A DNA stretch of 64,000 nt, taken from the NCBI RefSeq assembly GCF_003334405.1, contig NZ_QOWM01000002.1; one strand, written 5' to 3'. Source of the stretch: Escherichia coli. GTDB lineage: Bacteria; Pseudomonadota; Gammaproteobacteria; Enterobacterales; Enterobacteriaceae. Shown here in pieces: positions 31,104 to 64,000 of this stretch (the stretch's first letter is position 1; every line of letters begins with the position of its first letter). Under the pieces are notes generated by a model that saw only the letters and a list, made by a program, of their open reading frames with translations, had not been told where the DNA came from and ran no database searches. Made by a program: the position numbers and the translations under genes.

Positions 31104-31160
31104 AGGAAATACATCGCGTTAAAACGGAGGAAGCGCCGCCCGAAAGCGGCGCGAAAGGAC

Positions 31161-36520: not shown

Positions 36521-36565
36521 ATTCCTGCTATCCTTCGCGGCAGTTTTTCTTATTGAGGTTGCTTT

Positions 36566-39932: not shown

Positions 39933-41273
39933 ATGGCGACACAATCCAGTCCTGTTATTACTGATATGAAAGTCATTCCGGTGGCCGGGCATGACAGCAT
40001 GTTGCTTAATATTGGTGGGGCACATAACGCATATTTCACCCGCAATATTGTGGTACTCACCGATAACGCCGGGCATACCGGCATTGGTGAAGCGCCGGGC
40101 GGAGATGTGATTTATCAGACGCTTGTCGATGCTATTCCGATGGTTCTGGGCCAGGAAGTTGCGCGACTGAATAAAGTGGTCCAGCAGGTGCATAAAGGTA
40201 ATCAGGCCGCCGATTTTGATACCTTCGGTAAAGGTGCCTGGACCTTTGAATTACGCGTTAACGCCGTGGCGGCGCTGGAAGCCGCTTTGCTTGACCTGCT
40301 AGGTAAGGCGCTGAATGTTCCGGTCTGCGAACTGTTAGGGCCAGGCAAGCAACGCGAGGCTATTACCGTCCTCGGTTATCTGTTTTATATCGGTGATCGG
40401 ACCAAAACCGATCTTCCTTATGTGGAAAATACGCCGGGCAACCATGAGTGGTATCAGTTGCGGCATCAGAAAGCAATGAACAGCGAAGCCGTTGTGCGTC
40501 TGGCGGAAGCCTCACAGGATCGCTACGGCTTTAAAGATTTCAAACTTAAGGGCGGCGTGTTACCTGGCGAGCAAGAAATCGACACTGTTCGTGCATTGAA
40601 GAAACGCTTCCCGGATGCGCGGATTACCGTTGATCCCAACGGTGCATGGCTGCTTGATGAAGCCATTTCTTTATGCAAAGGGCTGAATGATGTTCTTACC
40701 TATGCCGAAGATCCATGCGGCGCAGAACAGGGCTTCTCCGGACGTGAAGTGATGGCGGAATTTCGACGGGCGACCGGCTTGCCCGTCGCGACTAACATGA
40801 TCGCCACCAACTGGCGCGAAATGGGTCATGCGGTGATGCTCAATGCGGTAGATATTCCACTTGCCGATCCGCACTTCTGGACGCTTTCCGGTGCAGTCCG
40901 TGTGGCGCAGCTTTGCGACGACTGGGGGCTGACCTGGGGCTGCCATTCTAATAACCATTTCGATATCTCTCTGGCGATGTTTACCCATGTGGGCGCGGCG
41001 GCACCGGGTAATCCTACCGCTATCGATACCCACTGGATTTGGCAGGAGGGCGATTGTCGCCTGACCCAAAATCCGCTGGAGATTAAAAACGGAAAAATTG
41101 CCGTTCCTGATGCGCCCGGTCTGGGCGTGGAACTGGACTGGGAACAGGTACAAAAGGCACATGAGGCCTATAAACGTCTGCCTGGCGGTGCGCGTAACGA
41201 CGCAGGTCCGATGCAGTACCTGATCCCCGGCTGGACCTTTGACCGTAAACGTCCCGTTTTCGGCCGTCATTGA
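39933..41273 (+). CDS. gudX: Glucarate dehydratase-related protein GudX (enolase superfamily)
   Basis: ORF 39918..41273. Start placed at [22 protein letters not shown], giving 446 aa. Paralogous to the next ORF. Confidence 0.88.
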
Positions 41274-41293
41274 TTCTGAAAAAGGACATAAAT

Positions 41294-42634
41294 ATGAGTT
41301 CTCAATTTACGACGCCTGTTGTTACTGAAATGCAGGTTATCCCGGTGGCGGGTCATGACAGTATGCTGATGAATCTGAGTGGTGCACACGCACCGTTCTT
41401 TACGCGTAATATTGTGATTATCAAAGATAATTCTGGTCACACTGGCGTAGGGGAAATTCCCGGCGGCGAGAAAATCCGTAAAACGCTGGAAGATGCGATT
41501 CCGCTGGTGGTAGGTAAAACGCTGGGTGAATACAAAAACGTTCTGACGCTGGTGCGTAATACTTTTGCCGATCGTGATGCTGGTGGGCGCGGTTTGCAGA
41601 CATTTGACCTACGTACCACTATTCATGTAGTTACCGGGATAGAAGCGGCAATGCTGGATCTGCTGGGGCAGCATCTGGGGGTAAACGTGGCATCGCTGCT
41701 GGGCGATGGTCAACAGCGTAGCGAAGTCGAAATGCTCGGTTATCTGTTCTTCGTCGGTAATCGCAAAGCCACGCCGCTGCCGTATCAAAGCCAGCCGGAT
41801 GACTCATGCGACTGGTATCGCCTGCGTCATGAAGAAGCGATGACGCCGGATGCGGTGGTGCGCCTGGCGGAAGCGGCATATGAAAAATATGGCTTCAACG
41901 ATTTCAAACTGAAGGGCGGTGTACTGGCCGGGGAAGAAGAGGCCGAGTCTATTGTGGCACTGGCGCAACGCTTCCCGCAGGCGCGTATTACGCTCGATCC
42001 TAACGGTGCCTGGTCGCTGAACGAAGCGATTAAAATCGGTAAATACCTGAAAGGTTCGCTGGCTTATGCAGAAGATCCGTGTGGTGCGGAGCAAGGTTTC
42101 TCCGGGCGTGAAGTGATGGCAGAGTTCCGTCGCGCGACAGGTCTACCGACTGCAACCAATATGATCGCCACCGACTGGCGGCAAATGGGCCATACGCTCT
42201 CCCTGCAATCCGTTGATATCCCGCTGGCGGATCCGCATTTCTGGACAATGCAAGGTTCGGTACGTGTGGCGCAAATGTGCCATGAATTTGGCCTGACCTG
42301 GGGTTCACACTCTAACAACCACTTCGATATTTCCCTGGCGATGTTTACCCATGTTGCCGCCGCTGCACCGGGTAAAATTACTGCTATTGATACGCACTGG
42401 ATTTGGCAGGAAGGCAATCAGCGCCTGACCAAAGAACCGTTTGAGATCAAAGGCGGGCTGGTACAGGTGCCAGAAAAACCGGGGCTGGGTGTAGAAATCG
42501 ATATGGATCAAGTGATGAAAGCCCATGAGCTGTATCAGAAACACGGGCTTGGCGCGCGTGACGATGCGATGGGAATGCAGTATCTGATTCCTGGCTGGAC
42601 GTTCGATAACAAGCGCCCGTGCATGGTGCGTTAA
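41294..42634 (+). CDS. gudD: D-glucarate dehydratase GudD
   Basis: ORF 41270..42634. Start placed at [23 protein letters not shown], giving 446 aa. Strong similarity to the upstream paralogue is visible directly. Confidence 0.9.
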
Positions 42635-42757
42635 GACAGAAAACCAAAACCGGCTCTATCTGGAGTCGGTTTGAGACTGATGCTAAACGCAAAATAGCCT
42701 GTTGTGCTATGTATCAGGTCTACATCATTTTTTAATTCATTGAATTTAATTGGTTTT

Positions 42758-42791
42758 GTAGGCCGGATAAGGCGTTAACGCCGCATCCGGC
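42758..42791. repeat. REP element between convergent gudD and barA
   Basis: gtaggccggataaggcgttaacgccgcatccggc is the reverse complement of a canonical REP. Confidence 0.6.
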
Positions 42792-42865
42792 ATAAACACA
42801 GGCACTTTGTCACCAATCTGAAACCAGCGTCATAAAAAGCCGATTGCTACTCGACAAGACATCCA

Positions 42866-45622
42866 TTACCCGAGAATTTTGCTGGCTTCGCGCGCGACAT
42901 TATCCATCTCGTCCAACAGTTCCAGCAGCTCCGGTTCCAAATCTTCTTCTTTAGTACCGCTACGTAGCTGTTGTTCGATCAGTTGGCAGAGATTCTTCAT
43001 ACGTGGCACACCGCTATAGCCGCAACTGCCATGCAGTTTATGAATCAAATCAACCAGGCCTTCCGGGTTTTCTCCAACCAGCTGTTCCTCAACTTTGTTG
43101 CGAACTTCAGGCAGGAAATCGAGTAACATTTGCAGCATATCGCGCGCTAAATCGGTTTTTCCTGCTGCCTGGCGTAGTGCCAGTTGCCAGTCGAGGGTCG
43201 CATTCGGGTTCACCACAATTTCGTTGACTTCGGGCGTCACGACGCGAGAGGAAATACCGCTGCCAGGCTTGTAGCGCAACAACAAATTATGCAATCGCTC
43301 TTCTTCAATCGGTTTCGCCAGATAATCGCTCATCCCTGCGCCAAGCAGCTTCTCTTTTTGCCCGGCCATTGCATGCGCCGTTACCGCGATAACCGGCGTT
43401 TGTTGCTGATGCGGGAGTTGGTGGATGAGTTCGCAGGCCCGAATGCCATCCATGTCCGGCATTTGAATATCCATTAAGATCAAATCGAACGGCATCTGTT
43501 TCGCCCGTTCAACCGCCTGATGCCCGCTATCGCAAAGTTCCACATGTTGCACCATATCTTCCAGCAATGCGCCGATAAGTTTCAGGTTAGCGGGGTTGTC
43601 ATCAACCGCCATGACTGTCATTGCCAGCTTACTTTCATCGGTTACAGGCAAAAGCGTGTTTTGTTTGTGATGACAAAATTCCGTCAGGGCAGGCAACAGG
43701 CGTGTAGGTGTTAATGGTTTCAGCAGACACGCGCCGATACCATCTTGCTTGAGTTTTTCAGCATTGACTTGTGCATGGCAAGGAAGTGCCAGCATCAGGA
43801 AATCGGTCATCGATACCGCTTTCGCTAATCGCTCATGTTGCATTGTTAGCGGCTCGCGGAAGGTCACCGCGATGCCTAACAACATCATGTCGTAATGCGC
43901 GGGAGGCAGCGCGGAGAACGTTGGGCTATAAACCACTTCCAGCGGCGTTTCACTTAAAATATCCAGCGTGCATTGCGCTGCTGCGGAGTTTGGTTCGACA
44001 TAGGCCAGGCGCTTACCTGCGAGGCACTGGGTGGATGGCCCTTCGATAATAATGTTCGGGTTCAGATCGAGATTAATGTGGAACCAGAAAGTTGAACCGC
44101 GATTCGGCTGGCTATGGAACGAAATATCGCCGCCCATTTCATTAACCAGTTTTTGTGTAATCACCAGCCCCAGCCCGGTGCCACCATGACGGCGGGAAAT
44201 ACTGGCATCAGCCTGTCGGAAGGCCTGGAATAAGCGCGATTGATCGCGTTCAGGAATACCAATGCCGGTATCCCGAATCTGCACTTCAATCTGCACTTTG
44301 GTATTACTCAGCGCACGTTTTTCTACCAGAATATCAATGTTGCCATTCTCGGTGAATTTAATTGCATTCCCCACCAGGTTAGTGATGATTTGCTGTAATC
44401 GCAGCGGGTCGCCGATCACGTTATCAGGCACGTCGCTTTTAATATTGAGCGTCAGTTCTAACCCTTTATCGTGAGAAGAATGTGCCAGCAGAGTAACGAC
44501 TTCATCCAGCGTGCTGCGTAGTGGGAATGGAATACTTTCCAGAATCAGCTTACCTGCTTCCAGTTTCGAGAAGTCGAGAACATCATTAATAATTGCCAGC
44601 AAATTATTTGCCGAACGTTCAATCGTATTCAGGTGATCGCGCTGCGTTGGTGTTAATTCTGTTTTCAGCGTCAGGCGGGTAAAGCCAATAACACCATTCA
44701 GTGGTGTACGCAGCTCGTGTGACATATTTGCCAGAAACTCGGATTTAATACGCGCCGCTTCCTGGGCGCGCTTTTTCGCCAGATCTAACTCAACGTTCTG
44801 AATTTCCATCTGCTCCAGCGTTTCACGCAGATCGGACGTCGCCTGGTCGATATTGTGCTGCATCTCTTCGTGATAAGCAGCCAGCGACATTGCCATCGAG
44901 TTGATACCGTTTTTCAGCATATCCAGCTCGCCGAGCATAAATCCTTCCACCCGGCTGTCGAGTTGCCCGCGACGGATGCGGTCGACGGTATTCACCATGT
45001 TGCGAATCGGACCGGTTACATCGCGCATTAAGCGCCAGCCAAAAATAAGCGCAATACCGATACAAAACAGCATCATCACGCTGGAAATAAAGATCTCTTT
45101 ATATTGCTGCAAGCGAACCGATTTAAGATCCAGCTCCAGCGCAATATATCCCAACATATTTTGACTATTTTTGGCATCGCTACTGGGCGATTCGTCGGGG
45201 GAGTAACTCTCAGAAATAATCGGCGTGCGGAGGATCATAATATCGCCGTCACGAGTGACAGTGAGCTGGCGAGGAAACGGCACGTTGCTGCCGAGCTGCA
45301 TTGATGAGGGATCAAGATGAAAATTGGAGGTGACAAAGAGTCGGTTATTTTCATCATAAACCGAAATCGCGCGAACAATATCGGAATGGCGACGATGCAG
45401 TACGCTTATTAACTGACCGATAGATTCGCGATTTTGCAGGCTCATGCCATATTCAGTAGAAACTGCAAGCGGCTCAATAATGCTGGCACCGGCATCTTCC
45501 AGTTGACGCTGCAAGTCGTTATAGCGATGCACGACGAAAAAGATACTCAGCAATAAACCAATAAGGACGGTCGGTGCCAGGATCAGAATCATCATGCGTG
45601 CGCGCAGGCTGTAGTTGGTCAT
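42866..45622 (-). CDS. barA: Hybrid sensor histidine kinase BarA (HAMP, HisKA/HATPase, receiver, HPt)
   Basis: 918-aa ORF with H-box (SHELRTPLN), a receiver region ([12 protein letters not shown]) and C-terminal HPt region. Confidence 0.93.
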
Positions 45623-45678
45623 GGAGTTCCGTTATGGGACAATTAAGGTCACACTGTTAAATTGAGAAAGTCTCGCCA

Positions 45679-46980
45679 ATGGCGCAATTCTACTCTGCAA
45701 AACGACGCACGACGACGCGTCAGATCATAACCGTTTCAGTCAACGACCTCGACTCTTTTGGTCAGGGCGTGGCGCGACATAACGGCAAAACGCTATTTAT
45801 CCCCGGATTATTGCCGCAGGAAAACGCGGAAGTTACTGTTACTGAAGATAAAAAACAGTATGCCCGCGCTAAAGTCGTACGCCGGTTAAGCGATAGCCCG
45901 GAACGCGAAACGCCACGCTGTCCTCATTTTGGCGTATGCGGTGGCTGTCAGCAACAACACGCCAGCGTGGATTTACAGCAGCGAAGCAAAAGTGCGGCAC
46001 TCGCCCGATTAATGAAACACGATGTCTCTGAAGTGATCGCCGATGTTCCCTGGGGCTATCGCCGTCGCGCGCGTTTAAGTCTGAACTACTTACCGAAAAC
46101 ACAGCAACTTCAGATGGGGTTTCGCAAAGCGGGCTCCAGTGACATTGTCGACGTCAAACAATGCCCCATTTTAGCGCCCCAACTTGAAGCATTGCTGCCC
46201 AAAGTCAGGGCATGTCTGGGCAGCTTACAAGCTATGCGCCATCTTGGTCATGTTGAACTGGTACAGGCAACCAGCGGCACGCTGATGATTTTGCGCCATA
46301 CCGCACCGCTAAGTTCGGCAGATCGCGAAAAACTGGAACGCTTTTCGCATTCTGAAGGCCTGGATCTGTATCTCGCCCCCGATAGTGAGATACTCGAAAC
46401 CGTCTCTGGTGAGATGCCCTGGTATGACTCAAACGGGTTGCGCTTAACTTTTAGCCCGCGCGATTTTATTCAGGTCAATGCGGGTGTGAACCAAAAAATG
46501 GTAGCGCGTGCGTTGGAATGGCTGGATGTGCAACCTGAAGATCGCGTACTGGATCTGTTCTGCGGTATGGGCAACTTTACACTGCCATTGGCGACACAAG
46601 CTGCCAGTGTGGTCGGTGTAGAAGGTGTTCCGGCGCTGGTGGAAAAAGGCCAGCAGAATGCGCGTCTTAATGGCTTACAGAATGTGACGTTTTATCACGA
46701 AAATCTTGAAGAAGATGTCACAAAGCAGCCGTGGGCGAAAAACGGCTTCGATAAAGTGTTGCTGGACCCGGCGCGAGCAGGTGCCGCAGGTGTTATGCAG
46801 CAAATTATAAAACTGGAACCTATTCGTATAGTTTATGTATCCTGTAACCCTGCAACGCTGGCTCGGGATAGCGAAGCGTTATTAAAAGCAGGATATACCA
46901 TTGCGCGACTGGCGATGCTGGATATGTTCCCACACACGGGACATCTGGAATCGATGGTACTTTTCTCGCGCGTTAAATAG
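45679..46980 (+). CDS. rlmD: 23S rRNA (uracil1939-C5)-methyltransferase RlmD
   Basis: 433-aa ORF with an Fe-S cysteine cluster ([11 protein letters not shown]) and a SAM-methyltransferase region ([14 protein letters not shown]). Confidence 0.9.
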
Positions 46981-47027
46981 TTGCGATTTGCCGATTTCGG
47001 CAGGTCTGGTCCCTAAAGGAGAGGACG

Positions 47028-49262
47028 ATGGTTGCGGTAAGAAGTGCACATATCAATAAGGCTGGTGAATTTGATCCGGAAAAATGGATCGCAAGTCTGG
47101 GTATTACCAGCCAGAAGTCGTGTGAGTGCTTAGCCGAAACCTGGGCGTATTGTCTGCAACAGACGCAGGGGCATCCGGATGCCAGTCTGTTATTGTGGCG
47201 TGGTGTTGAGATGGTGGAGATCCTCTCGACATTAAGTATGGACATTGACACGCTGCGGGCGGCGCTGCTTTTCCCTCTGGCGGATGCCAACGTAGTCAGC
47301 GAAGATGTGCTGCGTGAGAGCGTCGGTAAGTCGGTCGTTAACCTTATTCACGGCGTGCGTGATATGGCGGCGATCCGCCAGCTGAAAGCGACGCACACTG
47401 ATTCTGTTTCCTCCGAACAGGTCGATAACGTTCGCCGGATGTTATTGGCGATGGTCGATGATTTTCGCTGCGTAGTCATCAAACTGGCGGAGCGTATTGC
47501 TCATCTGCGCGAAGTAAAAGATGCGCCGGAAGATGAACGTGTACTGGCGGCAAAAGAGTGTACCAACATCTACGCACCGCTGGCTAACCGTCTCGGAATC
47601 GGACAACTGAAATGGGAACTGGAAGATTACTGCTTCCGTTACCTCCATCCAACCGAATACAAACGAATTGCCAAACTGCTGCATGAACGGCGTCTCGACC
47701 GCGAACACTACATCGAAGAGTTCGTTGGTCATCTGCGCGCTGAGATGAAAGCTGAAGGCGTTAAAGCGGAAGTGTATGGTCGTCCGAAACACATCTACAG
47801 CATCTGGCGTAAAATGCAGAAAAAGAACCTCGCCTTTGATGAGCTGTTTGATGTGCGTGCGGTACGTATTGTCGCCGAGCGTTTACAGGATTGCTATGCC
47901 GCACTGGGGATAGTGCACACTCACTATCGCCACCTGCCGGATGAGTTTGACGATTACGTCGCTAACCCGAAACCAAACGGTTATCAGTCTATTCATACCG
48001 TGGTTCTGGGGCCGGGTGGAAAAACCGTTGAGATCCAAATCCGCACCAAACAGATGCATGAAGATGCAGAGTTGGGTGTTGCTGCGCACTGGAAATATAA
48101 AGAGGGCGCGGCTGCTGGCGGCGCACGTTCGGGACATGAAGACCGGATTGCCTGGCTGCGTAAACTGATTGCGTGGCAGGAAGAGATGGCTGATTCCGGC
48201 GAAATGCTCGACGAAGTACGTAGTCAGGTCTTTGACGACCGGGTGTACGTCTTTACGCCGAAAGGTGATGTCGTTGATTTGCCTGCGGGATCAACGCCGC
48301 TGGACTTCGCTTACCACATCCACAGTGATGTCGGACACCGCTGCATCGGGGCAAAAATTGGCGGGCGCATTGTGCCGTTCACCTACCAGCTGCAGATGGG
48401 CGACCAGATTGAAATTATCACCCAGAAACAGCCGAACCCCAGCCGTGACTGGTTAAACCCAAACCTCGGTTACGTCACAACCAGCCGTGGGCGTTCGAAA
48501 ATTCACGCCTGGTTCCGTAAACAGGACCGTGACAAAAACATTCTGGCTGGGCGGCAAATCCTTGACGACGAGCTGGAACATCTGGGGATCAGCCTGAAAG
48601 AAGCAGAAAAACATCTGCTGCCGCGTTACAACTTCAATGATGTCGACGAGTTGCTGGCGGCGATTGGTGGCGGGGATATCCGTCTCAATCAGATGGTGAA
48701 CTTCCTGCAATCGCAATTTAATAAGCCGAGTGCCGAAGAGCAGGACGCCGCCGCGCTGAAGCAACTTCAGCAAAAAAGCTACACGCCGCAAAACCGCAGT
48801 AAAGATAACGGTCGCGTGGTAGTCGAAGGTGTTGGCAACCTGATGCACCACATCGCGCGCTGCTGCCAGCCGATTCCTGGAGATGAGATTGTCGGCTTCA
48901 TTACCCAGGGGCGCGGTATTTCAGTACACCGCGCCGATTGCGAACAACTGGCGGAACTGCGCTCCCATGCGCCAGAACGCATTGTTGACGCGGTATGGGG
49001 TGAGAGCTACTCCGCCGGATATTCGCTGGTGGTCCGCGTGGTAGCTAATGATCGTAGTGGGTTGTTACGTGATATCACGACCATTCTCGCCAACGAGAAG
49101 GTGAACGTGCTTGGCGTTGCCAGCCGTAGCGACACCAAACAGCAACTGGCGACCATCGACATGACCATTGAGATTTACAACCTGCAAGTGCTGGGGCGCG
49201 TGCTGGGTAAACTCAACCAGGTGCCGGATGTTATCGACGCGCGTCGGTTGCACGGGAGTTAG
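47028..49262 (+). CDS. relA: GTP pyrophosphokinase RelA, (p)ppGpp synthetase I
   Basis: 744-aa ORF with RelA/SpoT synthetase domain and TGS/ACT C-terminal regions. Confidence 0.93.
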   Translation: MVAVRSAHINKAGEFDPEKWIASLGITSQKSCECLAETWAYCLQQTQGHPDASLLLWRGVEMVEILSTLSMDIDTLRAALLFPLADANVVSEDVLRESVGKSVVNLIHGVRDMAAIRQLKATHTDSVSSEQVDNVRRMLLAMVDDFRCVVIKLAERIAHLREVKDAPEDERVLAAKECTNIYAPLANRLGIGQLKWELEDYCFRYLHPTEYKRIAKLLHERRLDREHYIEEFVGHLRAEMKAEGVKAEVYGRPKHIYSIWRKMQKKNLAFDELFDVRAVRIVAERLQDCYAALGIVHTHYRHLPDEFDDYVANPKPNGYQSIHTVVLGPGGKTVEIQIRTKQMHEDAELGVAAHWKYKEGAAAGGARSGHEDRIAWLRKLIAWQEEMADSGEMLDEVRSQVFDDRVYVFTPKGDVVDLPAGSTPLDFAYHIHSDVGHRCIGAKIGGRIVPFTYQLQMGDQIEIITQKQPNPSRDWLNPNLGYVTTSRGRSKIHAWFRKQDRDKNILAGRQILDDELEHLGISLKEAEKHLLPRYNFNDVDELLAAIGGGDIRLNQMVNFLQSQFNKPSAEEQDAAALKQLQQKSYTPQNRSKDNGRVVVEGVGNLMHHIARCCQPIPGDEIVGFITQGRGISVHRADCEQLAELRSHAPERIVDAVWGESYSAGYSLVVRVVANDRSGLLRDITTILANEKVNVLGVASRSDTKQQLATIDMTIEIYNLQVLGRVLGKLNQVPDVIDARRLHGS

Positions 49263-49275
49263 GCCGAAATTTGCT

Positions 49276-49320
49276 CGTATCTACAATGTAGATTGATATA
49301 TACTGTATCTACATATGATA
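49276..49320. promoter_or_regulatory. mazEF promoter/operator with overlapping palindromes
   Basis: Palindromic atctacaatgtagat and related atctacat half-sites lie 20-65 bp upstream of the mazE ATG. Confidence 0.55.
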
Positions 49321-49339
49321 GCGGTTTGAGGAAAGGGTT

Positions 49340-49588
49340 ATGATCCACAGTAGCGTAAAGCGTTGGGGAAATTCACCGGCGGTGCGGATCCCGGCTACGT
49401 TAATGCAGGCGCTCAATCTGAATATTGATGATGAAGTGAAGATTGACCTGGTGGATGGCAAATTAATTATTGAGCCAGTGCGTAAAGAGCCCGTATTTAC
49501 GCTTGCTGAACTGGTCAACGACATCACGCCGGAAAACCTCCACGAGAATATCGACTGGGGAGAGCCGAAAGATAAGGAAGTCTGGTAA
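49340..49588 (+). CDS. mazE: Antitoxin MazE (type II toxin-antitoxin)
   Basis: 82-aa ORF beginning [25 protein letters not shown]. Its stop overlaps the mazF ATG. Confidence 0.92.
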
Positions 49589-49923
49589 TGGTAAGCCGAT
49601 ACGTACCCGATATGGGCGATCTGATTTGGGTTGATTTTGACCCGACAAAAGGTAGCGAGCAAGCTGGACATCGTCCAGCTGTTGTCCTGAGTCCTTTCAT
49701 GTACAACAACAAAACAGGTATGTGTCTGTGTGTTCCTTGTACAACGCAATCAAAAGGATATCCGTTCGAAGTTGTTTTATCCGGTCAGGAACGTGATGGC
49801 GTAGCGTTAGCTGATCAGGTAAAAAGTATCGCCTGGCGGGCAAGAGGAGCAACGAAGAAAGGAACAGTTGCCCCAGAGGAATTACAACTCATTAAAGCCA
49901 AAATTAACGTACTGATTGGGTAG
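49588..49923 (+). CDS. mazF: Toxin MazF, ACA-specific mRNA interferase
   Basis: 111-aa ORF beginning [35 protein letters not shown]. Confidence 0.93.
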   Translation: MVSRYVPDMGDLIWVDFDPTKGSEQAGHRPAVVLSPFMYNNKTGMCLCVPCTTQSKGYPFEVVLSGQERDGVALADQVKSIAWRARGATKKGTVAPEELQLIKAKINVLIG

Positions 49924-49993
49924 TGTTACTAACTCACTTCTATTCTGGTCACAGGTTTCCACCTGACAGACCCGCAATTTTCAGGACAATTCA

Positions 49994-50785
49994 ATGAATC
50001 AAATCGACCGTTTGCTCACTATTATGCAGCGCCTGCGCGATCCGGAAAACGGCTGCCCGTGGGATAAAGAGCAGACATTTGCCACCATTGCGCCTTACAC
50101 CCTTGAAGAAACCTACGAAGTGCTGGACGCCATCGCCCGTGAAGATTTTGACGATCTTCGCGGTGAACTGGGCGATCTGCTATTCCAGGTGGTGTTTTAC
50201 GCGCAAATGGCTCAGGAAGAAGGGCGCTTTGACTTTAATGATATTTGCGCTGCTATTAGCGATAAATTAGAGCGTCGCCATCCGCATGTTTTTGCTGATA
50301 GTTCTGCCGAAAACAGTAGTGAAGTGCTTGCCCGTTGGGAGCAAATCAAAACCGAAGAGCGCGCGCAGAAAGCGCAGCATTCGGCGCTGGACGATATTCC
50401 TCGTAGTTTACCGGCTTTAATGCGTGCGCAAAAAATCCAGAAACGTTGCGCCAACGTTGGCTTCGATTGGACGACGCTTGGTCCGGTAGTCGATAAAGTC
50501 TACGAAGAGATCGACGAGGTGATGTACGAAGCGCGGCAGGCTGTTGTCGACCAGGCTAAACTGGAGGAGGAAATGGGGGACCTGCTGTTTGCCACGGTTA
50601 ATCTGGCTCGCCATTTAGGGACGAAAGCAGAAATCGCATTGCAAAAAGCGAACGAAAAATTCGAGCGTCGTTTTCGCGAAGTGGAGCGTATTGTTGCCGC
50701 GCGTGGACTGGAAATGACAGGTGTTGACCTCGAAACAATGGAAGAAGTCTGGCAACAGGTAAAACGGCAGGAAATTGATCTCTAA
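49994..50785 (+). CDS. mazG: Nucleoside triphosphate pyrophosphohydrolase MazG
   Basis: 263-aa ORF recognised as MazG. Confidence 0.9.
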   Translation: MNQIDRLLTIMQRLRDPENGCPWDKEQTFATIAPYTLEETYEVLDAIAREDFDDLRGELGDLLFQVVFYAQMAQEEGRFDFNDICAAISDKLERRHPHVFADSSAENSSEVLARWEQIKTEERAQKAQHSALDDIPRSLPALMRAQKIQKRCANVGFDWTTLGPVVDKVYEEIDEVMYEARQAVVDQAKLEEEMGDLLFATVNLARHLGTKAEIALQKANEKFERRFREVERIVAARGLEMTGVDLETMEEVWQQVKRQEIDL

Positions 50786-50997
50786 GGGAATTACGCGGTC
50801 AAGCGCCATTTGTGTCATTTTTTAAATGACAAGCGCTTGATTTGCGTCAAAAACATTTACCCCAAAGGGGCTATTTTCTCACTCCTGATTTCAATAGTGC
50901 GCTGGCGAAGAGGAGGGATAATGAAAGTTTGTGGCACAGGTCATGTTCGGGTATACTGCTTTCCCGTCTTGGTTATTCCATCGTCTTTTCAACCTAA

Positions 50998-52650
<1,653 letters not shown>

Positions 52651-52667
52651 GTAAAAAAGTTAGAGCG

Positions 52668-52700
52668 GCAACGCGTACCCTGGGTACGCGTTGTTTGTCT
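52668..52700 (+). terminator. Putative intrinsic terminator after pyrG
   Basis: Hairpin aacgcgtaccc tgg gggtacgcgtt followed by a T-rich tract. Confidence 0.5.
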
Positions 52701-52722
52701 GGAGTTTCAGTTTAACTAGTGA

Positions 52723-54036
<1,314 letters not shown>

Positions 54037-54055
54037 GACTGACTTTATCTGATTT

Positions 54056-54088
54056 AAAAATGCCAGCCTCCGGGCTGGCATTTTTTAT
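54056..54088. terminator. Bidirectional intrinsic terminator between convergent eno and ygcG
   Basis: Hairpin gccagcc tccg ggctggc flanked by aaaaa on the left and tttttt on the right. Confidence 0.65.
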
Positions 54089-54095
54089 GGTTGAG

Positions 54096-54968
54096 TTACC
54101 AGCGGCCGGATGCGCCGCCACCTCCAGAAGAACCGCCCCCGCCGCTAAATCCGCCGCTATCTGAGCCTCCAGCGGAACCGCTGTTGTCTGAATGATAACT
54201 TCTACCAGATGCTCTTTTCTGAAGTACACATAAACAGGTAAAGACCATAAATATGGTGAAAGTAAAAAAGAAGGAAAATACAGCAATGGAAAAAATTTTA
54301 TCGGAGAACAGGAATAAATCTAAAAGATAGATTGCTGAAATACAGACTCCACTTTTACATGCGCGACAAAAATTACTGCCTTGATGAAAAAACCAGAAAG
54401 GGAAGAACATCACTGCAAATACCCAAAAAATAGCAAAGTAATAATGATCACTGGAAGACGCTGATTCACTTTCTGAAGGATTAGTCGGATATTGGTGTTG
54501 TGAAGTGAGTTGGTTATTCAAAGCGTTTATAGCTAGCTCTAATCCCTTAGCTAATTTTTGTTGTTTAAATGCGGGTATCATGTTGCTACGGATGATATCT
54601 CCAGCCAGAGCATCGGTTACCTTTTCTTCCAGCCCATAACCTACCTGGATGCGGACAGTGCGATCCGACCAGGCAACAACGATCAGTATCCCATCATTAC
54701 GTTTGGCATCTCCTAAACGCCAATTGTCAAAAACTCTTGTAGCATATTGTTCAATTGTCTCGTCTTTGGTTGTGGGAACAATTAATACGGCAATTTGCAC
54801 TTGGGTATTATTGAAAATAGATTCTAACTTGTGCGTCAGTTCTTTCTTTTCTTGTGAGTTTAAGCTACTCGTAAGATCCGTAACTTGTTGCTGTAATTGT
54901 GGGACAATAGTTGGTTGGGCTGCAACAAAGGAACATACGAAAGTGAACATTAGTATGAAATAGCGCAT
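54096..54968 (-). CDS. ygcG: TPM-domain membrane protein YgcG with Gly/Ser-rich C-terminal tail
   Basis: ORF 54096..55037. Start placed at [17 protein letters not shown] (signal peptide), giving 290 aa. Hydrophobic segments are followed by the tail [31 protein letters not shown]. Confidence 0.8.
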
Positions 54969-55260
54969 TATAAATTTCTCATTAAATCTGGATAAATAAA
55001 TTGACGGCGGCATCGGTAATTTTATATTCGTTATCATTAAAAACTAATACAGAAAAAATAAATATAATTTTGGTGAATGTTTTGACATGATTAAATCCAT
55101 TTTCTTTATTTTCTTCTGACATAATACGTTACTCCCTTTAATTATTAACGATATGTTTCGCATTTTTCTTTAAACCTGCCTGTAACAGAATGTTAATAAG
55201 ACATGATTGTTGTGGCAGGATCTGCAATAATTAACAATTATCCACTTCACAGAGAATGCT

Positions 55261-55932
55261 ATGCAGTACCCGATTAACGAGATGTTCCAGACCCTGCAAG
55301 GTGAGGGTTACTTTACCGGCGTTCCCGCCATTTTTATTCGTTTACAGGGATGCCCGGTTGGCTGTGCCTGGTGCGACACCAAACACACCTGGGAAAAGCT
55401 TGAGGATCGGGAAGTCTCCCTTTTCAGCATTCTGGCGAAGACCAAAGAGAGTGATAAGTGGGGGGCTGCGAGCAGTGAAGATTTGCTGGCTGTCATTGGT
55501 CGCCAGGGATACACCGCGCGGCATGTGGTGATTACGGGTGGTGAGCCTTGCATTCATGATTTGCTGCCACTGACTGATCTGCTCGAAAAGAACGGTTTTA
55601 GCTGCCAGATCGAAACCAGTGGTACTCATGAGGTACGCTGCACACCGAATACCTGGGTTACCGTATCGCCAAAGCTGAACATGCGCGGCGGCTATGAAGT
55701 GTTGTCACAGGCACTGGAGCGAGCCAACGAAATCAAGCATCCAGTGGGGCGCGTACGCGATATTGAAGCACTGGATGAACTACTGGCAACGCTGACCGAT
55801 GATAAACCGCGAGTCATTGCACTGCAGCCGATTAGCCAAAAGGATGATGCCACACGTTTGTGCATTGAAACCTGCATTGCGCGTAATTGGCGTTTGTCGA
55901 TGCAAACACATAAATATCTAAATATTGCCTGA
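55261..55932 (+). CDS. queE: 7-carboxy-7-deazaguanine synthase QueE (radical SAM)
   Basis: 223-aa ORF with a cysteine cluster (CPVGCAWCDTKHTW). Confidence 0.9.
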   Translation: MQYPINEMFQTLQGEGYFTGVPAIFIRLQGCPVGCAWCDTKHTWEKLEDREVSLFSILAKTKESDKWGAASSEDLLAVIGRQGYTARHVVITGGEPCIHDLLPLTDLLEKNGFSCQIETSGTHEVRCTPNTWVTVSPKLNMRGGYEVLSQALERANEIKHPVGRVRDIEALDELLATLTDDKPRVIALQPISQKDDATRLCIETCIARNWRLSMQTHKYLNIA

Positions 55933-56099
55933 TTAAACATTTATAAGCGTTATAAATGGGTGGAACCTGTAAAGACTTCTACTCATTTATATTGTTTGTC
56001 GCCTCTGAAAACTCCTCCATTTTACCCATCCAGGGCTAATCATTAGCATTCTCTACAAATTCTGTGGCATTAATTTTTCGCTGGAGTGAAAATTATTGC

Positions 56100-56271
56100 G
56101 GTAAAGTTTGGTAGATTTTAGTTTGTATAGAGTTATTTTAAATATTTACCTTTTTAATCAATGGATTAAGTGCTCTTTAACATAATGGATGTGTTGTTTG
56201 TGTGATACTATAAAGTTGGTAGATTGTGACTGGCTTAAAAAATCATTAATTAATAATAGGTTATGTTTAGA
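56100..56271 (+). promoter_or_regulatory. CRISPR leader (AT-rich), immediately upstream of the first repeat
   Basis: About 170 bp of AT-rich sequence ending ...taataataggttatgtttaga next to repeat 1. The repeat orientation puts the leader on this side. Confidence 0.5.
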
Positions 56272-56544
56272 GTGTTCCCCGCGCCAGCGGGGATAAACCG
56301 GCAAAAACCGGGCAATCGCAAAAAGGCGTAATGTGTTCCCCGCGCCAGCGGGGATAAACCTGTGTTTGCGGCATTAACGCTCACCAGCATTTCGTGTTCC
56401 CCGCGCCAGCGGGGATAAACCGAGCAGATACACGGCTTTGTATTCCGTGCGCCCGTGTTCCCCGCGCCAGCGGGGATAAACCGGAGCCTGACGAGACTAC
56501 TGAGGCCGTTCTGTCGAGTTCCCCGCGCCAGCGGGGATAAACCA
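56272..56544 (+). CRISPR. Type I-E CRISPR array, 5 repeats of 29 nt and 4 spacers of 32 nt (61-bp period)
   Basis: Repeats start at 56272, 56333, 56394, 56455 and 56516, with consensus gtgttccccgcgccagcggggataaaccg. The last repeat reads gagttccccgcgccagcggggataaacca. Spacers: 56301..56332 gcaaaaaccgggcaatcgcaaaaaggcgtaat; 56362..56393 gtgtttgcggcattaacgctcaccagcatttc; 56423..56454 agcagatacacggctttgtattccgtgcgccc; 56484..56515 gagcctgacgagactactgaggccgttctgtc. Confidence 0.95.
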
Positions 56545-56998
56545 CCATATAACCCGTTATCTCTTTCTCAAGTTTTTATATTAGCAGTACTTGTAATAAG
56601 CAACATATCCACGTAACACCTCATGTTCAAAATAGTTCTCCATGCCAGAGAGGTTCACAATTATCGATACAAAAAATTAAATTTAATCAAAGTGTTATTT
56701 GTATGATTCTTAAATCGTTAAGAAATTTTAATCTATTATTTTTTTAATATTGAATTAATGCCTGTTAATTTTTTCTTTAGAATAACAGTATATTTTTTAA
56801 GCTTGTTATTCATTGGTTAAGTAATAAATCTGGAAGTTTGTCTTTGTTTTGAGGCTAATGAGTGGTTTTACATAACCGCCTCTATACGCTGTTGATGAAT
56901 AGTTCTTATGAATAAAGATATCCAGTTCATACTTTAAGTGAAAATTGATAAAGTGCGATTCGTATTGTCTTTTATTCTAAAGACATCGAGTGTAGTTA

Positions 56999-57136
56999 AT
57001 ATTCCTTGTAAAAACAGGGATAAACCGAACTAGTTAAAGTTTTTATTATGTTCCCTGCATCAGCGGGGATAAACCGGACTTGTTATCATTTTTTAAGTTG
57101 TCGAACTTATGTTCCCCGCGTCAGCGGGGATAACCA
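56999..57136 (+). CRISPR. Degenerate CRISPR remnant: one truncated and two mutated I-E-like repeats
   Basis: Partial repeat ending cagggataaaccg at 57027; atgttccctgcatcagcggggataaaccg at 57048..57076; a 32-nt spacer at 57077..57108; atgttccccgcgtcagcggggataacca at 57109..57136. Same strand and 61-bp spacing as the main array. Confidence 0.6.
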
Positions 57137-57182
57137 TTCAGGTATGTTCAGGCCGGGCAGTTTCCCGCCCGGCCTTCCTCAC

Positions 57183-58439
57183 TTACGCATTCGACCAGCT
57201 CTGGATCGAATCCACATTCCCCAATTCCCCATGCATCACTTCATACGATTTTTTCAGGATCACATCAGTATGTTTGGTTAGGTCTTTGAAAATGCCTTTA
57301 TTCATCGCGTCGTAGCGTTTGGCATTGCTCTCAATCGGTATAAAGATATCTTTCACGCGAACCATGTTATCGACAGCCGTTGCGTAATCCGGGTATAGCC
57401 CCAGACCTACCGCTGTATTAATCGCTGCCCCCAGGCTTGCACAACCGTTAATGGCGTTACGTCGTGCCGGAAGGTTGAACACGTCGGCAAAAATCTGCAT
57501 AAACAGATCGCTGTTCGAACCGCCGCCAGTAATGATCACATGCTTCGCAAAGTGATTCATTTCATTACACATATTGTCGTAATTGTTCTTCAGCGTCAGC
57601 GCCACGCTTTCCAGTATCGAACGATATATCCATGCGTAATCCATGCTGGAATCAAAGCCGATCATAATCCCGCGTTTGTACGGTTCCCACGGATTGGTCA
57701 GCCAGTCCAGCACCGTCATCAGACCATTACAGCCTGGCGGCACACAAGAAGCTTTTTTGTTGAGTAAATCTTCCGGTGAAAGATCCTGCGCCCTGGCATC
57801 CTGAATTAACGACTCGCCTAGCATGTCGCGCAGCCAGCTCACCGTCCACATGCCTTTGCGAATACCGTAACCTTCATACAGCAATGTTTGCGGAATAGAA
57901 GACATAATCGGCCAGTACGCTACTGGATCTTTCGGCAGTGCTTTGCCGTTCATCATCAATGCGATGTAAGTGCCAAGAGAAATTACCGCCGTTTCATCAT
58001 CCAGTAATCCGGCCCCCAGAGCTTCTACCGGTTTATCACTGGTGGTACAAACAACCGGCAGTCCTGCCGGGAAATGTGTCGCCAGTGCGGCTTGTGGTGT
58101 GATATGTCCGAGGACGGTGCCAGGCATTTGCACATCAAACAGCATATGACGGGGGATATTAAACTTATCCATTACCGCAGCATCTTCGCTCCATGCCCAG
58201 CTCTTATAATCCACCGGCCACTGACCAAAATAGTTGGCGATATTGTCTTTAAACTCGCCGGTTAACCGCCCGCCGGAAAGATTTTTGCTGCCGGGGATTT
58301 CAGCGCGTTCCAGTAACAAAACGGATAAACCCGCTCGCGCGCAGCGTAACGCGCAAGCGGTGCCTGCAATACCGGCACCAATAATAATAATGTCGCAGTC
58401 GTCTTCCATGTCATGCCCCAGATATCCAGAACACAACAC
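57183..58439 (-). CDS. Hybrid ORF: FAD-binding Rossmann N-terminus (about 50 aa) fused to the C-terminal ~365 aa of an FGGY sugar kinase; probable deletion-fusion product
   Basis: 418-aa ORF. The N-terminus DIIIIGAGIAGTACALRCARAGLSVLLLER is a classic GxGxxG dinucleotide-binding fold. The rest is FGGY-like (VISLGTYIALM ... HVIITGGGSNSDLFMQIFADVFNLPARR) and lacks the N-terminal ATP-binding motif of that family. Alternative start at the ATG at 58409. Confidence 0.6.
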   Translation of the reverse strand: MLCSGYLGHDMEDDCDIIIIGAGIAGTACALRCARAGLSVLLLERAEIPGSKNLSGGRLTGEFKDNIANYFGQWPVDYKSWAWSEDAAVMDKFNIPRHMLFDVQMPGTVLGHITPQAALATHFPAGLPVVCTTSDKPVEALGAGLLDDETAVISLGTYIALMMNGKALPKDPVAYWPIMSSIPQTLLYEGYGIRKGMWTVSWLRDMLGESLIQDARAQDLSPEDLLNKKASCVPPGCNGLMTVLDWLTNPWEPYKRGIMIGFDSSMDYAWIYRSILESVALTLKNNYDNMCNEMNHFAKHVIITGGGSNSDLFMQIFADVFNLPARRNAINGCASLGAAINTAVGLGLYPDYATAVDNMVRVKDIFIPIESNAKRYDAMNKGIFKDLTKHTDVILKKSYEVMHGELGNVDSIQSWSNA

Positions 58440-58486
58440 CCTAACATAGCGTTACTTAAGGGAAATTGACCGCCGACACACTCTTA

Positions 58487-58852
58487 TCATTCGCCGCGAT
58501 AGATACAACCTGCGGTGCAGGTTTCTTTTACCATCACCGCACTTAACAGCGGCACAACGGGTTTAACCTGATCCCAAATCCATTTTGCTAAAACCTCGCT
58601 GGTTGGGTTTTCCAGACCTGGAATATCATTGAGATAATGGTGATCGAGGCGCTCGTAGGTTGGTTTAAACGCCGCTTTTAGTTCAGCGAAATCGATAATC
58701 CAGCCCGTATGCGGATCGACTTCCCCGGTAATTTCCAGTCGCACCATAAAGGAATGCCCGTGCAGGCGACCACATTTATGCCCTTCCGGGACGTGTGGTA
58801 AGCGGTGAGCGGCTTCGAAGGTGAAATCTTTAAATAACGTGGTGGACATCAT
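58487..58852 (-). CDS. queD: 6-carboxy-5,6,7,8-tetrahydropterin synthase QueD
   Basis: ORF 58487..58936. Start placed at [18 protein letters not shown], giving 121 aa, with the CGRLHGHSF zinc-binding motif. Confidence 0.88.
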
Positions 58853-59167
58853 AATTTCTCTACAGGACGATAAAACCGCCGTAGAGTACCGGAAAGGCTG
58901 TTTTTTCGCATTATCTAAAACGACTTTGTTGCGCAAAATCGCTGATTTATCTTAATGATTGGCTAAATTCATTTGTTTTTCATTAGGTTGGTTAATCTAT
59001 TTTGTTGTTAAAGACTATTGCTAAAACAGGTTAGTCGATTTGGTTATTAGTTATCGCTATCCCGTCTTTAATCCACACCGTTTGCCCCGTTAACCTTACC
59101 TTCTCTTCTGTTTTATGGGCGCTGACAGGGCGCAGAAACAGCTTTGCTTACTGGAACATAACGACGC

Positions 59168-60967
59168 ATGACGACACAGGTCCCACCTTCCGCGTTGCTT
59201 CCGTTGAACCCGGAGCAACTGGCACGCCTTCAGGCGGCCACGACCGATTTAACTCCCACCCAGCTTGCCTGGGTTTCTGGCTATTTCTGGGGCGTACTCA
59301 ATCAGCAGCCTGCTGCGCTTGCAGCGACGCCAGCGCCAGCCGCAGAAATGCCGGGTATAACTATTATCTCCGCCTCGCAAACCGGCAATGCGCGCCGGGT
59401 TGCTGAAGCATTACGTGATGATTTATTAGCAGCAAAACTGAACGTTAAGCTGGTGAACGCGGGCGACTATAAATTCAAACAAATCGCCAGCGAAAAACTG
59501 CTCATCGTAGTGACGTCAACGCAAGGGGAAGGGGAACCGCCGGAAGAAGCCGTCGCGCTGCATAAGTTCCTGTTCTCCAAAAAAGCGCCAAAGCTGGAAA
59601 ACACCGCGTTTGCCGTGTTTAGCCTCGGCGATAGCTCTTATGAATTTTTCTGCCAGTCCGGGAAAGATTTCGACAGCAAGCTGGCGGAACTGGGTGGTGA
59701 ACGCCTGCTCGACCGTGTCGATGCCGATGTTGAATACCAGGCTGCTGCCAGCGAGTGGCGCGCCCGCGTGGTTGATGCGCTTAAATCGCGTGCGCCTGTC
59801 GCGGCACCTTCGCAATCCGTCGCTACTGGCGCGGTAAATGAAATCCACACCAGCCCGTACAGCAAAGACGCGCCGCTGGTGGCTAGCCTCTCTGTTAACC
59901 AGAAAATTACCGGGCGTAACTCTGAAAAAGACGTTCGCCATATCGAAATTGACTTAGGTGACTCGGGCCTGCGTTACCAGCCGGGTGACGCGCTGGGCGT
60001 CTGGTATCAGAACGATCCGGCACTGGTGAAAGAACTTGTCGAACTGCTGTGGCTGAAAGGCGATGAACCTGTCACCGTCGAGGGCAAAACGTTGCCTCTG
60101 AACGAAGCGCTACAGTGGCACTTCGAACTGACCGTCAACACCGCCAACATTGTTGAGAATTACGCCACGCTTACCCGCAGTGAAACACTGCTGCCGCTGG
60201 TGGGCGATAAAGCGAAGTTACAGCATTACGCCGCGACGACGCCGATTGTTGACATGGTGCGTTTCTCCCCGGCACAGCTTGATGCCGAAGCGCTAATTAA
60301 TCTGCTGCGCCCGCTGACGCCGCGTCTCTATTCCATTGCCTCCTCGCAGGCGGAAGTCGAGAACGAAGTACACGTCACCGTTGGTGTGGTGCGTTACGAC
60401 GTGGAAGGCCGCGCCCGTGCCGGTGGTGCCTCCAGCTTCCTCGCTGACCGCGTGGAAGAAGAGGGCGAAGTCCGCGTATTTATCGAACATAACGATAACT
60501 TCCGCCTGCCAGCCAATCCAGAAACCCCGGTGATTATGATTGGCCCAGGCACCGGCATCGCGCCGTTCCGCGCCTTTATGCAGCAACGTGCTGCCGATGA
60601 AGCGCCGGGAAAAAACTGGCTGTTCTTTGGCAACCCGCACTTTACGGAAGATTTCCTCTACCAGGTGGAGTGGCAGCGCTACGTCAAAGAGGGTGTGCTG
60701 ACGCGGATCGATCTCGCCTGGTCGCGCGACCAAAAAGAAAAAGTTTACGTACAAGACAAACTGCGCGAACAGGGCGCGGAGCTGTGGCGCTGGATCAATG
60801 ACGGTGCCCACATTTATGTCTGCGGTGACGCTAATCGCATGGCGAAAGACGTTGAGCAGGCACTTCTGGAAGTGATTGCCGAATTTGGTGGCATGGACAC
60901 CGAAGCGGCGGATGAATTTTTAAGTGAGCTGCGCGTAGAGCGCCGTTATCAGCGAGATGTCTACTAA
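59168..60967 (+). CDS. cysJ: Sulfite reductase [NADPH] flavoprotein alpha subunit
   Basis: 599-aa ORF with flavodoxin-like and FAD/NADPH-binding regions. Its stop overlaps the cysI start (TAATG). Confidence 0.93.
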
Positions 60968-62679
60968 TGAGCGAAAAACATCCAGGGCCTTTAGTGGTCG
61001 AAGGAAAACTGACAGACGCCGAGCGCATGAAGCTTGAAAGCAACTACCTGCGCGGCACCATTGCGGAAGATTTAAACGACGGTCTGACCGGCGGCTTTAA
61101 GGGCGACAACTTCCTGCTGATCCGCTTCCACGGCATGTATCAGCAGGATGACCGCGACATCCGCGCCGAACGTGCTGAACAGAAGCTGGAGCCGCGCCAC
61201 GCGATGCTGTTGCGCTGCCGTCTGCCGGGTGGGGTGATTACCACTAAACAGTGGCAGGCGATAGACAAATTTGCCGGTGAAAACACCATCTATGGCAGCA
61301 TTCGCCTGACCAACCGCCAGACGTTTCAGTTCCACGGCATTCTGAAAAAGAACGTCAAACCGGTGCACCAGATGCTGCACTCGGTTGGTCTTGATGCGCT
61401 GGCGACCGCTAACGACATGAACCGTAACGTACTCTGCACCTCGAACCCTTACGAGTCGCAGCTACACGCGGAAGCGTACGAGTGGGCGAAGAAGATTTCT
61501 GAGCATCTGCTGCCGCGTACCCGCGCGTATGCGGAGATCTGGCTCGACCAGGAAAAAGTCGCCACTACTGATGAAGAACCGATCCTCGGCCAGACCTACC
61601 TGCCGCGTAAATTCAAAACCACGGTAGTGATCCCGCCACAGAACGATATCGATCTGCACGCCAACGACATGAACTTCGTGGCGATCGCCGAAAACGGCAA
61701 GCTGGTGGGCTTTAACCTGTTGGTGGGCGGTGGGCTTTCCATCGAACACGGCAACAAGAAAACCTACGCCCGCACCGCGAGTGAGTTTGGCTATCTGCCG
61801 CTGGAGCATACGCTGGCGGTGGCCGAAGCCGTCGTGACAACTCAGCGTGACTGGGGTAACCGAACCGATCGTAAAAATGCCAAAACCAAATACACGCTGG
61901 AGCGCGTGGGGGTTGAGACGTTTAAAGCGGAAGTGGAGCGTCGCGCGGGGATCAAATTTGAACCGATCCGTCCATATGAGTTCACCGGACGAGGCGATCG
62001 TATTGGCTGGGTTAAGGGCATTGATGATAACTGGCACCTGACGCTGTTTATCGAAAATGGTCGCATCCTTGATTATCCGGCGCGTCCGCTGAAAACCGGC
62101 CTGCTGGAGATCGCGAAGATCCACAAAGGCGATTTCCGCATTACGGCGAACCAGAATCTGATCATCGCCGGTGTACCGGAAAGCGAGAAAGCGAAGATCG
62201 AGAAGATCGCCAAAGAGAGCGGGTTAATGAATGCCGTCACGCCGCAGCGTGAAAACTCAATGGCCTGCGTGTCATTCCCGACTTGCCCGCTGGCGATGGC
62301 GGAAGCGGAGCGTTTCCTGCCGTCTTTTATCGACAACATCGATAATTTAATGGCGAAACATGGTGTCAGCGATGAGCATATCGTGATGCGTGTAACAGGC
62401 TGCCCGAACGGTTGTGGTCGCGCGATGCTGGCGGAAGTGGGCCTGGTGGGTAAAGCGCCGGGTCGCTACAACCTGCATCTTGGCGGCAACCGCATTGGGA
62501 CACGTATCCCTCGGATGTATAAAGAAAACATCACCGAGCCGGAAATCCTGGCGTCGCTTGATGAACTGATAGGGCGCTGGGCGAAAGAGCGCGAAGCGGG
62601 TGAAGGCTTCGGCGACTTTACGGTGCGTGCGGGCATCATTCGCCCGGTGCTCGATCCGGCGCGCGATTTGTGGGATTAA
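60967..62679 (+). CDS. cysI: Sulfite reductase [NADPH] hemoprotein beta subunit
   Basis: 570-aa ORF with a siroheme/4Fe-4S cysteine region ([16 protein letters not shown] ... TGCPNGCGR). Confidence 0.93.
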
Positions 62680-62696
62680 CCATCAGCCCGGTCTTG

Positions 62697-62731
62697 TAGG
62701 CCTGATAAGACGCGTGAGCGTCGCATCAGGC
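62697..62731. repeat. REP element between cysI and cysH
   Basis: gtaggcctgataagacgcgtgagcgtcgcatcaggc is REP-like. Confidence 0.55.
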
Positions 62732-62752
62732 AAGGCAAACAGTGAGGAATCT

Positions 62753-63487
62753 ATGTCCAAACTCGATCTAAACGCCCTGAACGAACTGCCGAAGGTAGAT
62801 CGCATTCTGGCGCTGGCGGAAACTAACGCCCAACTGGAAAAACTGGACGCTGAAGGCCGCGTAGCCTGGGCGCTGGATAATCTGCCCGGTGAATATGTGC
62901 TTTCTTCCAGCTTCGGCATTCAGGCGGCGGTGAGCCTGCATCTGGTGAATCAGATTCGGCCGGATATTCCAGTGATCCTCACCGATACCGGTTATCTGTT
63001 TCCGGAAACCTACCGCTTTATTGACGAGTTAACGGACAAACTCAAGCTCAACCTGAAAGTGTACCGTGCTACCGAAAGCGCCGCCTGGCAGGAAGCACGC
63101 TACGGCAAACTGTGGGAACAGGGCGTTGAAGGCATTGAAAAGTACAATGACATCAACAAAGTCGAACCGATGAACCGGGCGCTGAAAGAACTTAACGCGC
63201 AAACCTGGTTTGCTGGCCTGCGCCGCGAACAATCCGGCAGCCGCGCCAATTTACCGGTGCTGGCAATTCAGCGTGGCGTATTTAAAGTGCTGCCGATTAT
63301 CGACTGGGATAACCGAACTATTTATCAGTACCTGCAAAAACATGGCCTGAAATATCACCCATTATGGGATGAAGGATATTTATCGGTCGGTGATACCCAT
63401 ACAACCCGTAAATGGGAACCTGGCATGTCGGAAGAAGAAACACGTTTCTTTGGCTTAAAAAGGGAATGTGGATTGCACGAAGGGTAA
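62753..63487 (+). CDS. cysH: Phosphoadenosine phosphosulfate (PAPS) reductase
   Basis: ORF 62600..63487. Start placed at [42 protein letters not shown], giving 244 aa, with a C-terminal ECGLH motif. Confidence 0.92.
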
Positions 63488-63751
63488 ATATTGCCGGATA
63501 AATTAAACGCCTCTGTCAGAAATGATGGGGGCGTTTTTATTTTGCGAGCAGTATTCCTGATTTTAAACGTGAACGCCGCTGGAAGAATTATCAGGTATAG
63601 AATGGCGTCGGGTGCTTGAGGCTGTCTGGCGTTAAGCATTCGCGAGGTTCCAGATGGACAAAAGCCCCAGGCGATATTTCTATCAACCTGAGGCTTACGT
63701 TCGAACCCAAACAATTCGAATGTTAGTCTCTTCTTTGCAGGGAGGCAAGAC

Positions 63752-63904
63752 ATGCTGACAAAATATGCCCTTGTGGCAATCATAGTGCTGTGTTTTACAG
63801 TACTGGGATTCACGCTGATGGTAGGCGACTCGTTGTGTGAGTTGAGTATCAGAGAACGTGGTATGGAGTTTAAGGCAGTTCTCGCTTACGAATCGAAGAA
63901 GTAG
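63752..63904 (+). CDS. Hok/Gef-family type I toxin (50 aa), HokE-like
   Basis: Not in the ORF track because it is under 60 aa. I translated it by hand: [51 protein letters not shown] ggagg SD sits 7-11 nt upstream. It has one transmembrane helix and the conserved SLCE...R and AYES motifs of the Hok family. Confidence 0.7.
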
Positions 63905-64000
63905 CCACCACGCGGGGGTAAAACCCATAAGCGCTAACTTAAGGGTTGAACCATCTGAAGAATGCGACGCCTCGGTGCCTCGTTAAGACGATGCCTCGCG

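Follow-up and report, generated by a model that had tools for sequence, protein, structure and literature searches.

An in-frame ygcN-ygcE chimera beside the CRISPR-II locus of Escherichia coli, very probably the scar of a single recent deletion

In Escherichia coli K-12 the gene order is cysJ, queD, ygcN, ygcO, ygcP, ygcQ, ygcR, ygcS, ygcU, ygcW, yqcE, ygcE, CRISPR-II and queE, which from queD to CRISPR is exactly the order given in the original prediction made for the locus studied here. The first gene of the ygc cluster, ygcN (b2766), encodes a FixC-like FAD-dependent oxidoreductase of 423 aa, and the last, ygcE (b2776), an FGGY-family carbohydrate kinase. In ASKHA/FGGY kinases the phosphate-1 motif for ATP binding is formed by the N-terminal loop, and most of the sugar contacts come from domain I around it. 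The closest solved relative of YgcE is the autoinducer-2 kinase LsrK (PDB 5ya0): residues 2-110 of YgcE align to LsrK 20-128, and the stretch IGIDGGSQSTK matches the LsrK N-terminus. The CRISPR-II locus of E. coli is the ygcE-ygcF (queE) interval (PMC3903273). A literature search returned this definition of CRISPR-II only, and none of the papers covered named any two of ygcN, ygcE and ygcU.

In the stretch of E. coli DNA analysed here (64,000 nt, hereafter the window), a minus-strand ORF lies between queD and CRISPR-II. A mechanical ORF of 418 aa with a GTG start at 58439 is present at 57183..58439 (minus strand), as originally described. The annotated start of K-12 ygcN is the ATG at window position 58409 (MEDDCDIIIIGAG...), and the product is therefore one of 408 aa, not 418. 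The chimeric ygcN'-'ygcE ORF thus occupies 57183..58409 (minus strand; 408 aa plus stop), GTG 58439 being simply the most upstream start permitted to a mechanical ORF finder. The exact 408-aa protein is held in NCBI under at least four accessions (HAH2862263.1, HAI1962690.1, HAM4697985.1 and RCQ37467.1), from several E. coli drafts, and as UniRef entry UPI000B42C15F. It is named either 'FAD-dependent oxidoreductase' or 'sugar kinase', and the 418-aa version has no record in the public protein collection. Upstream of the ORF, queD is intact (58487..58852, minus strand; mapped from K-12 b2765). The gap of 47 bp first given between queD and the ORF does not hold: it is 77 bp when counted from the ATG at 58409, a distance unchanged from K-12.

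Alignment to K-12, which had been proposed as a check, showed an abrupt switch from ygcN to ygcE with 100% identity on both sides. From 59200 to 58263 (minus strand) the window is identical at 938 of 938 positions to K-12 queD, the spacer and ygcN to nt 147, and from 58265 to 57183 (minus strand) it matches ygcE nt 397-1479 of K-12 at 1083 of 1083 positions, with the same result against strain VG48B2. The ygcN-derived 5' part (58263..58409, minus strand) covers ygcN nt 1-147, that is codons 1-49, and the ygcE-derived 3' part (57183..58265, minus strand) covers ygcE nt 397-1479 including the stop, approximately residues 133-492. At the protein level, YgcN 1-49 is followed by YgcE from about residue 132-134 to 492, each 100% identical to K-12, across the junction peptide ...NLSGGRLTGEFK.... 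The kinase part had been placed after about residue 55; the last YgcN residue before the switch is 49, or 59 in the numbering of the 418-aa ORF.

The two parts overlap in the triplet TTA at the deletion joint (58263..58265, minus strand), which is common to the parental sites in ygcN and ygcE. In the three-way alignment the ygcN side reads ...GGCGGGCGGTTA/TATACC, the ygcE side ...CGCATCGCTTA/ACCGGCG and the window at the joint ...GGCGGGCGGTTAACCGGCG. A search for short microhomology at this point, also proposed beforehand, thus found 3 bp of exact match (TTA), or 5 of 6 positions if CG[G/C]TTA is counted. TTA is codon 49 of ygcN and codon 133 of ygcE, specifying Leu in both, and it is because the triplet stands in phase 0 in both genes that the fusion is in frame.

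Relative to either K-12 or VG48B2, the window lacks exactly 9,491 bp. The deletion fusing ygcN to ygcE is therefore as originally proposed, with its size of roughly 10 kb now refined. Eight genes are wholly lost (ygcO, ygcP, ygcQ, ygcR, ygcS, ygcU, ygcW and yqcE), together with the 3' 88% of ygcN (nt 148-1272) and the 5' 27% of ygcE (nt 1-396). By annotation name, the lost cluster encoded FixABCX-like proteins (YgcQ/R/N/O), a GlpP-like protein (YgcP), two MFS transporters, an FAD-linked oxidase (YgcU) and an SDR (YgcW). VG48B2 (NZ_CP128584.1), among the best-matching complete genomes, is 99.9% identical to window positions 40000-64000 and spans this region over ~33.5 kb instead of 24 kb. Window 40000-58265 corresponds to positions 1-18266 of the VG48B2 segment and window 58263-64000 to positions 27755-33492, with the same 3-bp overlap. 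The whole 10-gene interval is kept in VG48B2, where both breakpoints lie 9,491 bp apart. Continuous alignment of the ORF to a single gene, or a conserved natural family of the same architecture, had been named as the evidence that would speak against a deletion. The ORF does not align continuously to any one gene, and relatives identical on both flanks (99.9%, 24 kb) carry separate intact genes, so that a conserved natural architecture is not what is seen here. The halves of the chimera are collinear with two separate genes of a close relative and are divided by one abrupt switch. As the parental genes are nucleotide-identical in near-identical strains, the origin of the chimera is settled.

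The deletion is also recent. The 24-kb tail of the window differs from VG48B2, the nearest intact relative, by only two SNPs (42666 and 42762) and one CRISPR spacer; neither the gene stumps nor the 5.7 kb towards queD and cysJIH contain any difference. The identity of both stumps to K-12 and VG48B2 at the DNA level shows that the deletion is very young. Its recency also explains why the chimera carries no disabling mutation, which is accordingly uninformative about selection. Both SNPs fall between gudD and barA, at a distance of 96 bp from each other.

Profile searches with Pfam and NCBIfam bore out the two-part make-up of an FAD-oxidoreductase and an FGGY kinase. In the 418-aa numbering, Pfam DAO matched residues 16-65 with model positions 1-53 of 353 only (E 1.5e-10), and further Rossmann-type FAD/NAD models of Pfam, including FAD_binding_2 and NAD_binding_8, covered the same ~35-50 residues. 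The N-terminal GxGxxG beta-alpha-beta dinucleotide-binding motif of the FixC/YgcN type is present (DIIIIGAGIAGTACAL...LLLER). The flavoprotein body of about 430 aa is not: the NCBIfam FixC/YgcN-type profiles (PRK10015/PRK10157) matched over profile positions 3-62 of 429, scoring 42.1 bits against a curated cut-off of 466 for the full-length protein. On the kinase side, Pfam FGGY_C was complete (model 1-196 of 198, E 5.2e-22), and only the final third of FGGY_N was found (model 163-245 of 245, E 0.0094), so that the N-terminal domain is not complete. The NCBIfam FGGY kinase profiles (LsrK, XylB, AraB, GntK and GlpK) matched from about position 160-190 through to the end. No FGGY whole-protein model of NCBIfam passed its curated cut-off on the chimera; the top score was that of the autoinducer-2 kinase model (115.6 bits against 528), and the XylB model reached 102.2 bits against 380. 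The FGGY N-terminal ATP-binding motif had been reported as absent, and indeed the YgcE stretch IGIDGGSQSTK falls in the deleted part.

The 408-aa product keeps little of YgcN and an incomplete YgcE kinase, and it is almost certainly inactive. Compared with K-12 ygcN, the first 147 nt are identical and residues 50-423 are gone. The 49 residues that are left (~12% of 423 aa) comprise beta1-alphaA-beta2 with GAGIAG and the acidic end of beta2, and such a fragment could not be expected to form an FAD domain alone. Compared with K-12 ygcE, approximately the first 132-133 residues are gone and the remainder is 100% identical; what the chimera lacks includes the glycine-rich N-terminal loop that matches LsrK, and with it the phosphate-1 ATP-binding loop and most of the sugar-binding domain. 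Since the rest of the cluster has gone as well, even a partly active kinase would be without its pathway. The chimera could nevertheless be transcribed and translated, judging from the native ygcN start region that it retains. A promoter and terminator scan of 56900-59200 was uninformative, with fewer promoter-like sites than in shuffled sequences. On the minus strand it placed no terminator-like site in the gap from queD to the ORF, and read-through from queD is therefore possible, though unproven.

Downstream of the ORF, the neighbourhood is that of a normal ygcE. The CRISPR-II array (56272..56544; type I-E repeats, 5 repeats and 4 spacers) is the usual right-hand neighbour of this gene. The ORF stop is followed directly by a degenerate remnant of two repeats and one spacer (57048..57137), which is not part of the main array and stands in the position that it normally takes after ygcE. 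The short plus-strand 'ORFs' at 57048-57137 are translated CRISPR repeats. Directly past the ORF stop there is a GC-rich hairpin without a T-run (GGCCGGGCGGGAAACTGCCCGGCC; 57141-57180, minus strand), which is probably the native 3' element of ygcE and was not called by a simple terminator scan. Within the 4-spacer array, spacer 3 (56423-56454) is wholly unlike the spacer that VG48B2 carries in the same slot, and the other three are identical. Such an internal swap is unusual under polarised acquisition and suggests recombination between arrays.

Elsewhere in the window, Rfam models identified a sok antitoxin RNA at 63610-63767 (RF01794, 113 bits), belonging to a chromosomal hok/sok locus near the window end. 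Four further RNAs found in this way are expected in E. coli: CsrB (36164-36523, plus strand), GcvB (17778-17983, minus strand), the ES036 sRNA (14720-14762, plus strand) and a tRNA (13219-13292, minus strand). The last 12.8 kb of the window are 100% identical to the end of draft contig QOWM01000002.1 (GCA_003334405.1), and window base 64000 is the end of this contig. In strain 2017.15.02CC, IS421 comes after hok. The break in the contig probably falls at a repeat (an IS, for example) or at the CRISPR-I/cas region.

How widespread the chimera is was assessed with a 200-bp probe that has the joint at its centre. In the 5,426 complete E. coli genomes compared, each match covered one half of the probe only and none spanned the joint. 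At a threshold of 80% coverage, 5,064 of these genomes (93%) have the deleted segment and the remaining 362 (~7%) do not. The retention of the segment in 93% of genomes makes the ygc cluster near-core. The chimeric allele, on the other hand, is clade-specific and confined to one small E. coli lineage.

Taken together, these data make it very probable that one recent, illegitimate deletion of 9,491 bp produced the chimera, and that the ORF is a non-functional in-frame scar and not a new enzyme. A collapsed or chimeric join in the assembly might be suspected, given that the window was taken from the end of a draft contig. Yet the joint lies ~5.7 kb from the contig end, and three contigs assembled independently in different projects (GCA_003334405.1 QOWM01000002.1, Logan ERR4578754 and Logan ERR1948962) agree across it at 100% identity. 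The ERR4578754 contig carrying it recurs in nine samples, and several NCBI accessions hold the exact protein. Identical junctions in independent assemblies exclude misassembly, and an artefact is in our estimate exceedingly unlikely. Equally hard to credit is a genuine bifunctional or neofunctional enzyme with a natural FAD-domain/FGGY-kinase architecture. Such an enzyme would agree with the open frame, the retained native ygcN start region and the lack of disabling mutations. However, its halves do not differ by a single nucleotide from two intact genes which near-identical strains carry separately, 9.5 kb apart, only 49 flavoprotein residues are left, the kinase is without its N-terminal ATP-binding region, and the chimera occurs in 0 of the 5,426 complete genomes. 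A further reading, improbable if somewhat less so, is that the native ygcN signals drive expression of the chimera and that losing the ygc cluster is adaptive. One variant of it would have the fusion protein gain some regulatory or dominant-negative role. If the loss were adaptive, its recurrence would suggest that an uncharacterised catabolic cluster of FixABCX-like genes, transporters and a kinase, next to CRISPR-II, has repeatedly been selected against or has come under relaxed selection.

As to how the deletion arose, the starting state would have been a K-12-like queD-ygcN...ygcE-CRISPR-II interval, in which a single RecA-independent step joined two sites with only TTA in common. The most likely route would be a microhomology-guided illegitimate event, and we infer either replication slippage or microhomology-mediated end joining of a break. 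The stumps would have been left in frame by chance, for which a prior of 1/3 calls for no special explanation. Microhomology of 3 bp or more is expected at ~5% of random joins, so the 3 bp seen here mildly favour microhomology-guided joining and are weak evidence for any particular mechanism. Homologous, RecA-dependent recombination was rejected: it needs repeats of tens of bp, and the endpoints have 3 bp in common. When 600 bp around each endpoint were compared, no direct or inverted repeat longer than 10 nt was detected (best 10 nt, E 0.27). A two-step origin, in which an IS such as IS1 replaced the interval and a second deletion then took the IS with its flanks, gains some plausibility from an allele of strain 2017.15.02CC (NZ_AP027818.1), which consists of ygcN nt 1-471, IS1A and ygcE from nt 161 to its end. 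Here 8,928 bp are replaced by IS1A (feature at 7603-8370 of the extracted NZ_AP027818.1 segment), and the missing segment lies wholly inside the deletion of the window; IS3-associated alleles of the same interval exist as well. Nonetheless, no IS element, IS end or terminal repeat is left at or near the joint of the window, where ygcN and ygcE abut directly. Over the 1083 positions of the ygcE stump, the IS1A allele has 10 SNPs against the window and the intact genes of VG48B2 and K-12 have none, which argues against an IS1-bearing ancestor. With intact genes in the closest relatives, a single step is the more parsimonious, and we regard the two-step origin as very unlikely. Self-targeting of the ygc genes by the type I-E CRISPR-Cas system, followed by microhomology repair, would fit the microhomology at the joint and the distance of ~1.1 kb between the deletion end and a CRISPR array, and Cas3 damage can cause large deletions. 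The five CRISPR-II spacers of the window, however, share with the deleted 9.5 kb only chance words of 7-12 nt; CRISPR-I and the cas genes lie outside the window. We consider self-targeting very unlikely, and a single microhomology-guided deletion is the origin that we prefer.

The original interpretation of the ORF as a ygcN-ygcE deletion scar is thus supported, and the event is an ordinary one of the pseudogene type, with no mechanistic novelty. Its practical consequence is that the automated protein names are misleading and that a flag as fusion pseudogene is warranted. The locus also provides a base-resolved 3-bp microhomology deletion in a natural E. coli lineage, the joint of which is usable as a clade marker. 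The uncharacterised ygcN-ygcE cluster beside CRISPR-II is lost recurrently, and the window supplies one more allele of this kind. This pattern, the only mildly interesting point, may help in working out what the cluster does or what fitness cost it carries.

At least three to four independent losses of this interval can be counted, namely the allele of the window, the IS1 allele, an allele lacking ~10.2 kb and the IS3 alleles. In the ~10.2-kb allele, which is widespread (for example in strain A11), ygcN nt ~60-66 runs into ygcE nt ~1023, the two overlap by 6 bp at most, and the fusion is out of frame, whereas that of the window is in frame. The interval is also lost at 6735-6740 of the extracted NZ_CP028763.1 segment. 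In the IS3-type alleles, IS3 lies beside the ygcE stump. Like the allele of the window, the IS1, ~10.2-kb and IS3 alleles have all lost the ygc cluster between queD and CRISPR-II and left stumps of ygcN and/or ygcE; unlike it, they have other breakpoints and sizes and occur in other lineages. Their stumps are annotated by NCBI as partial pseudogenes, a flag which the chimera described here escapes because it happens, by chance, to be in frame.
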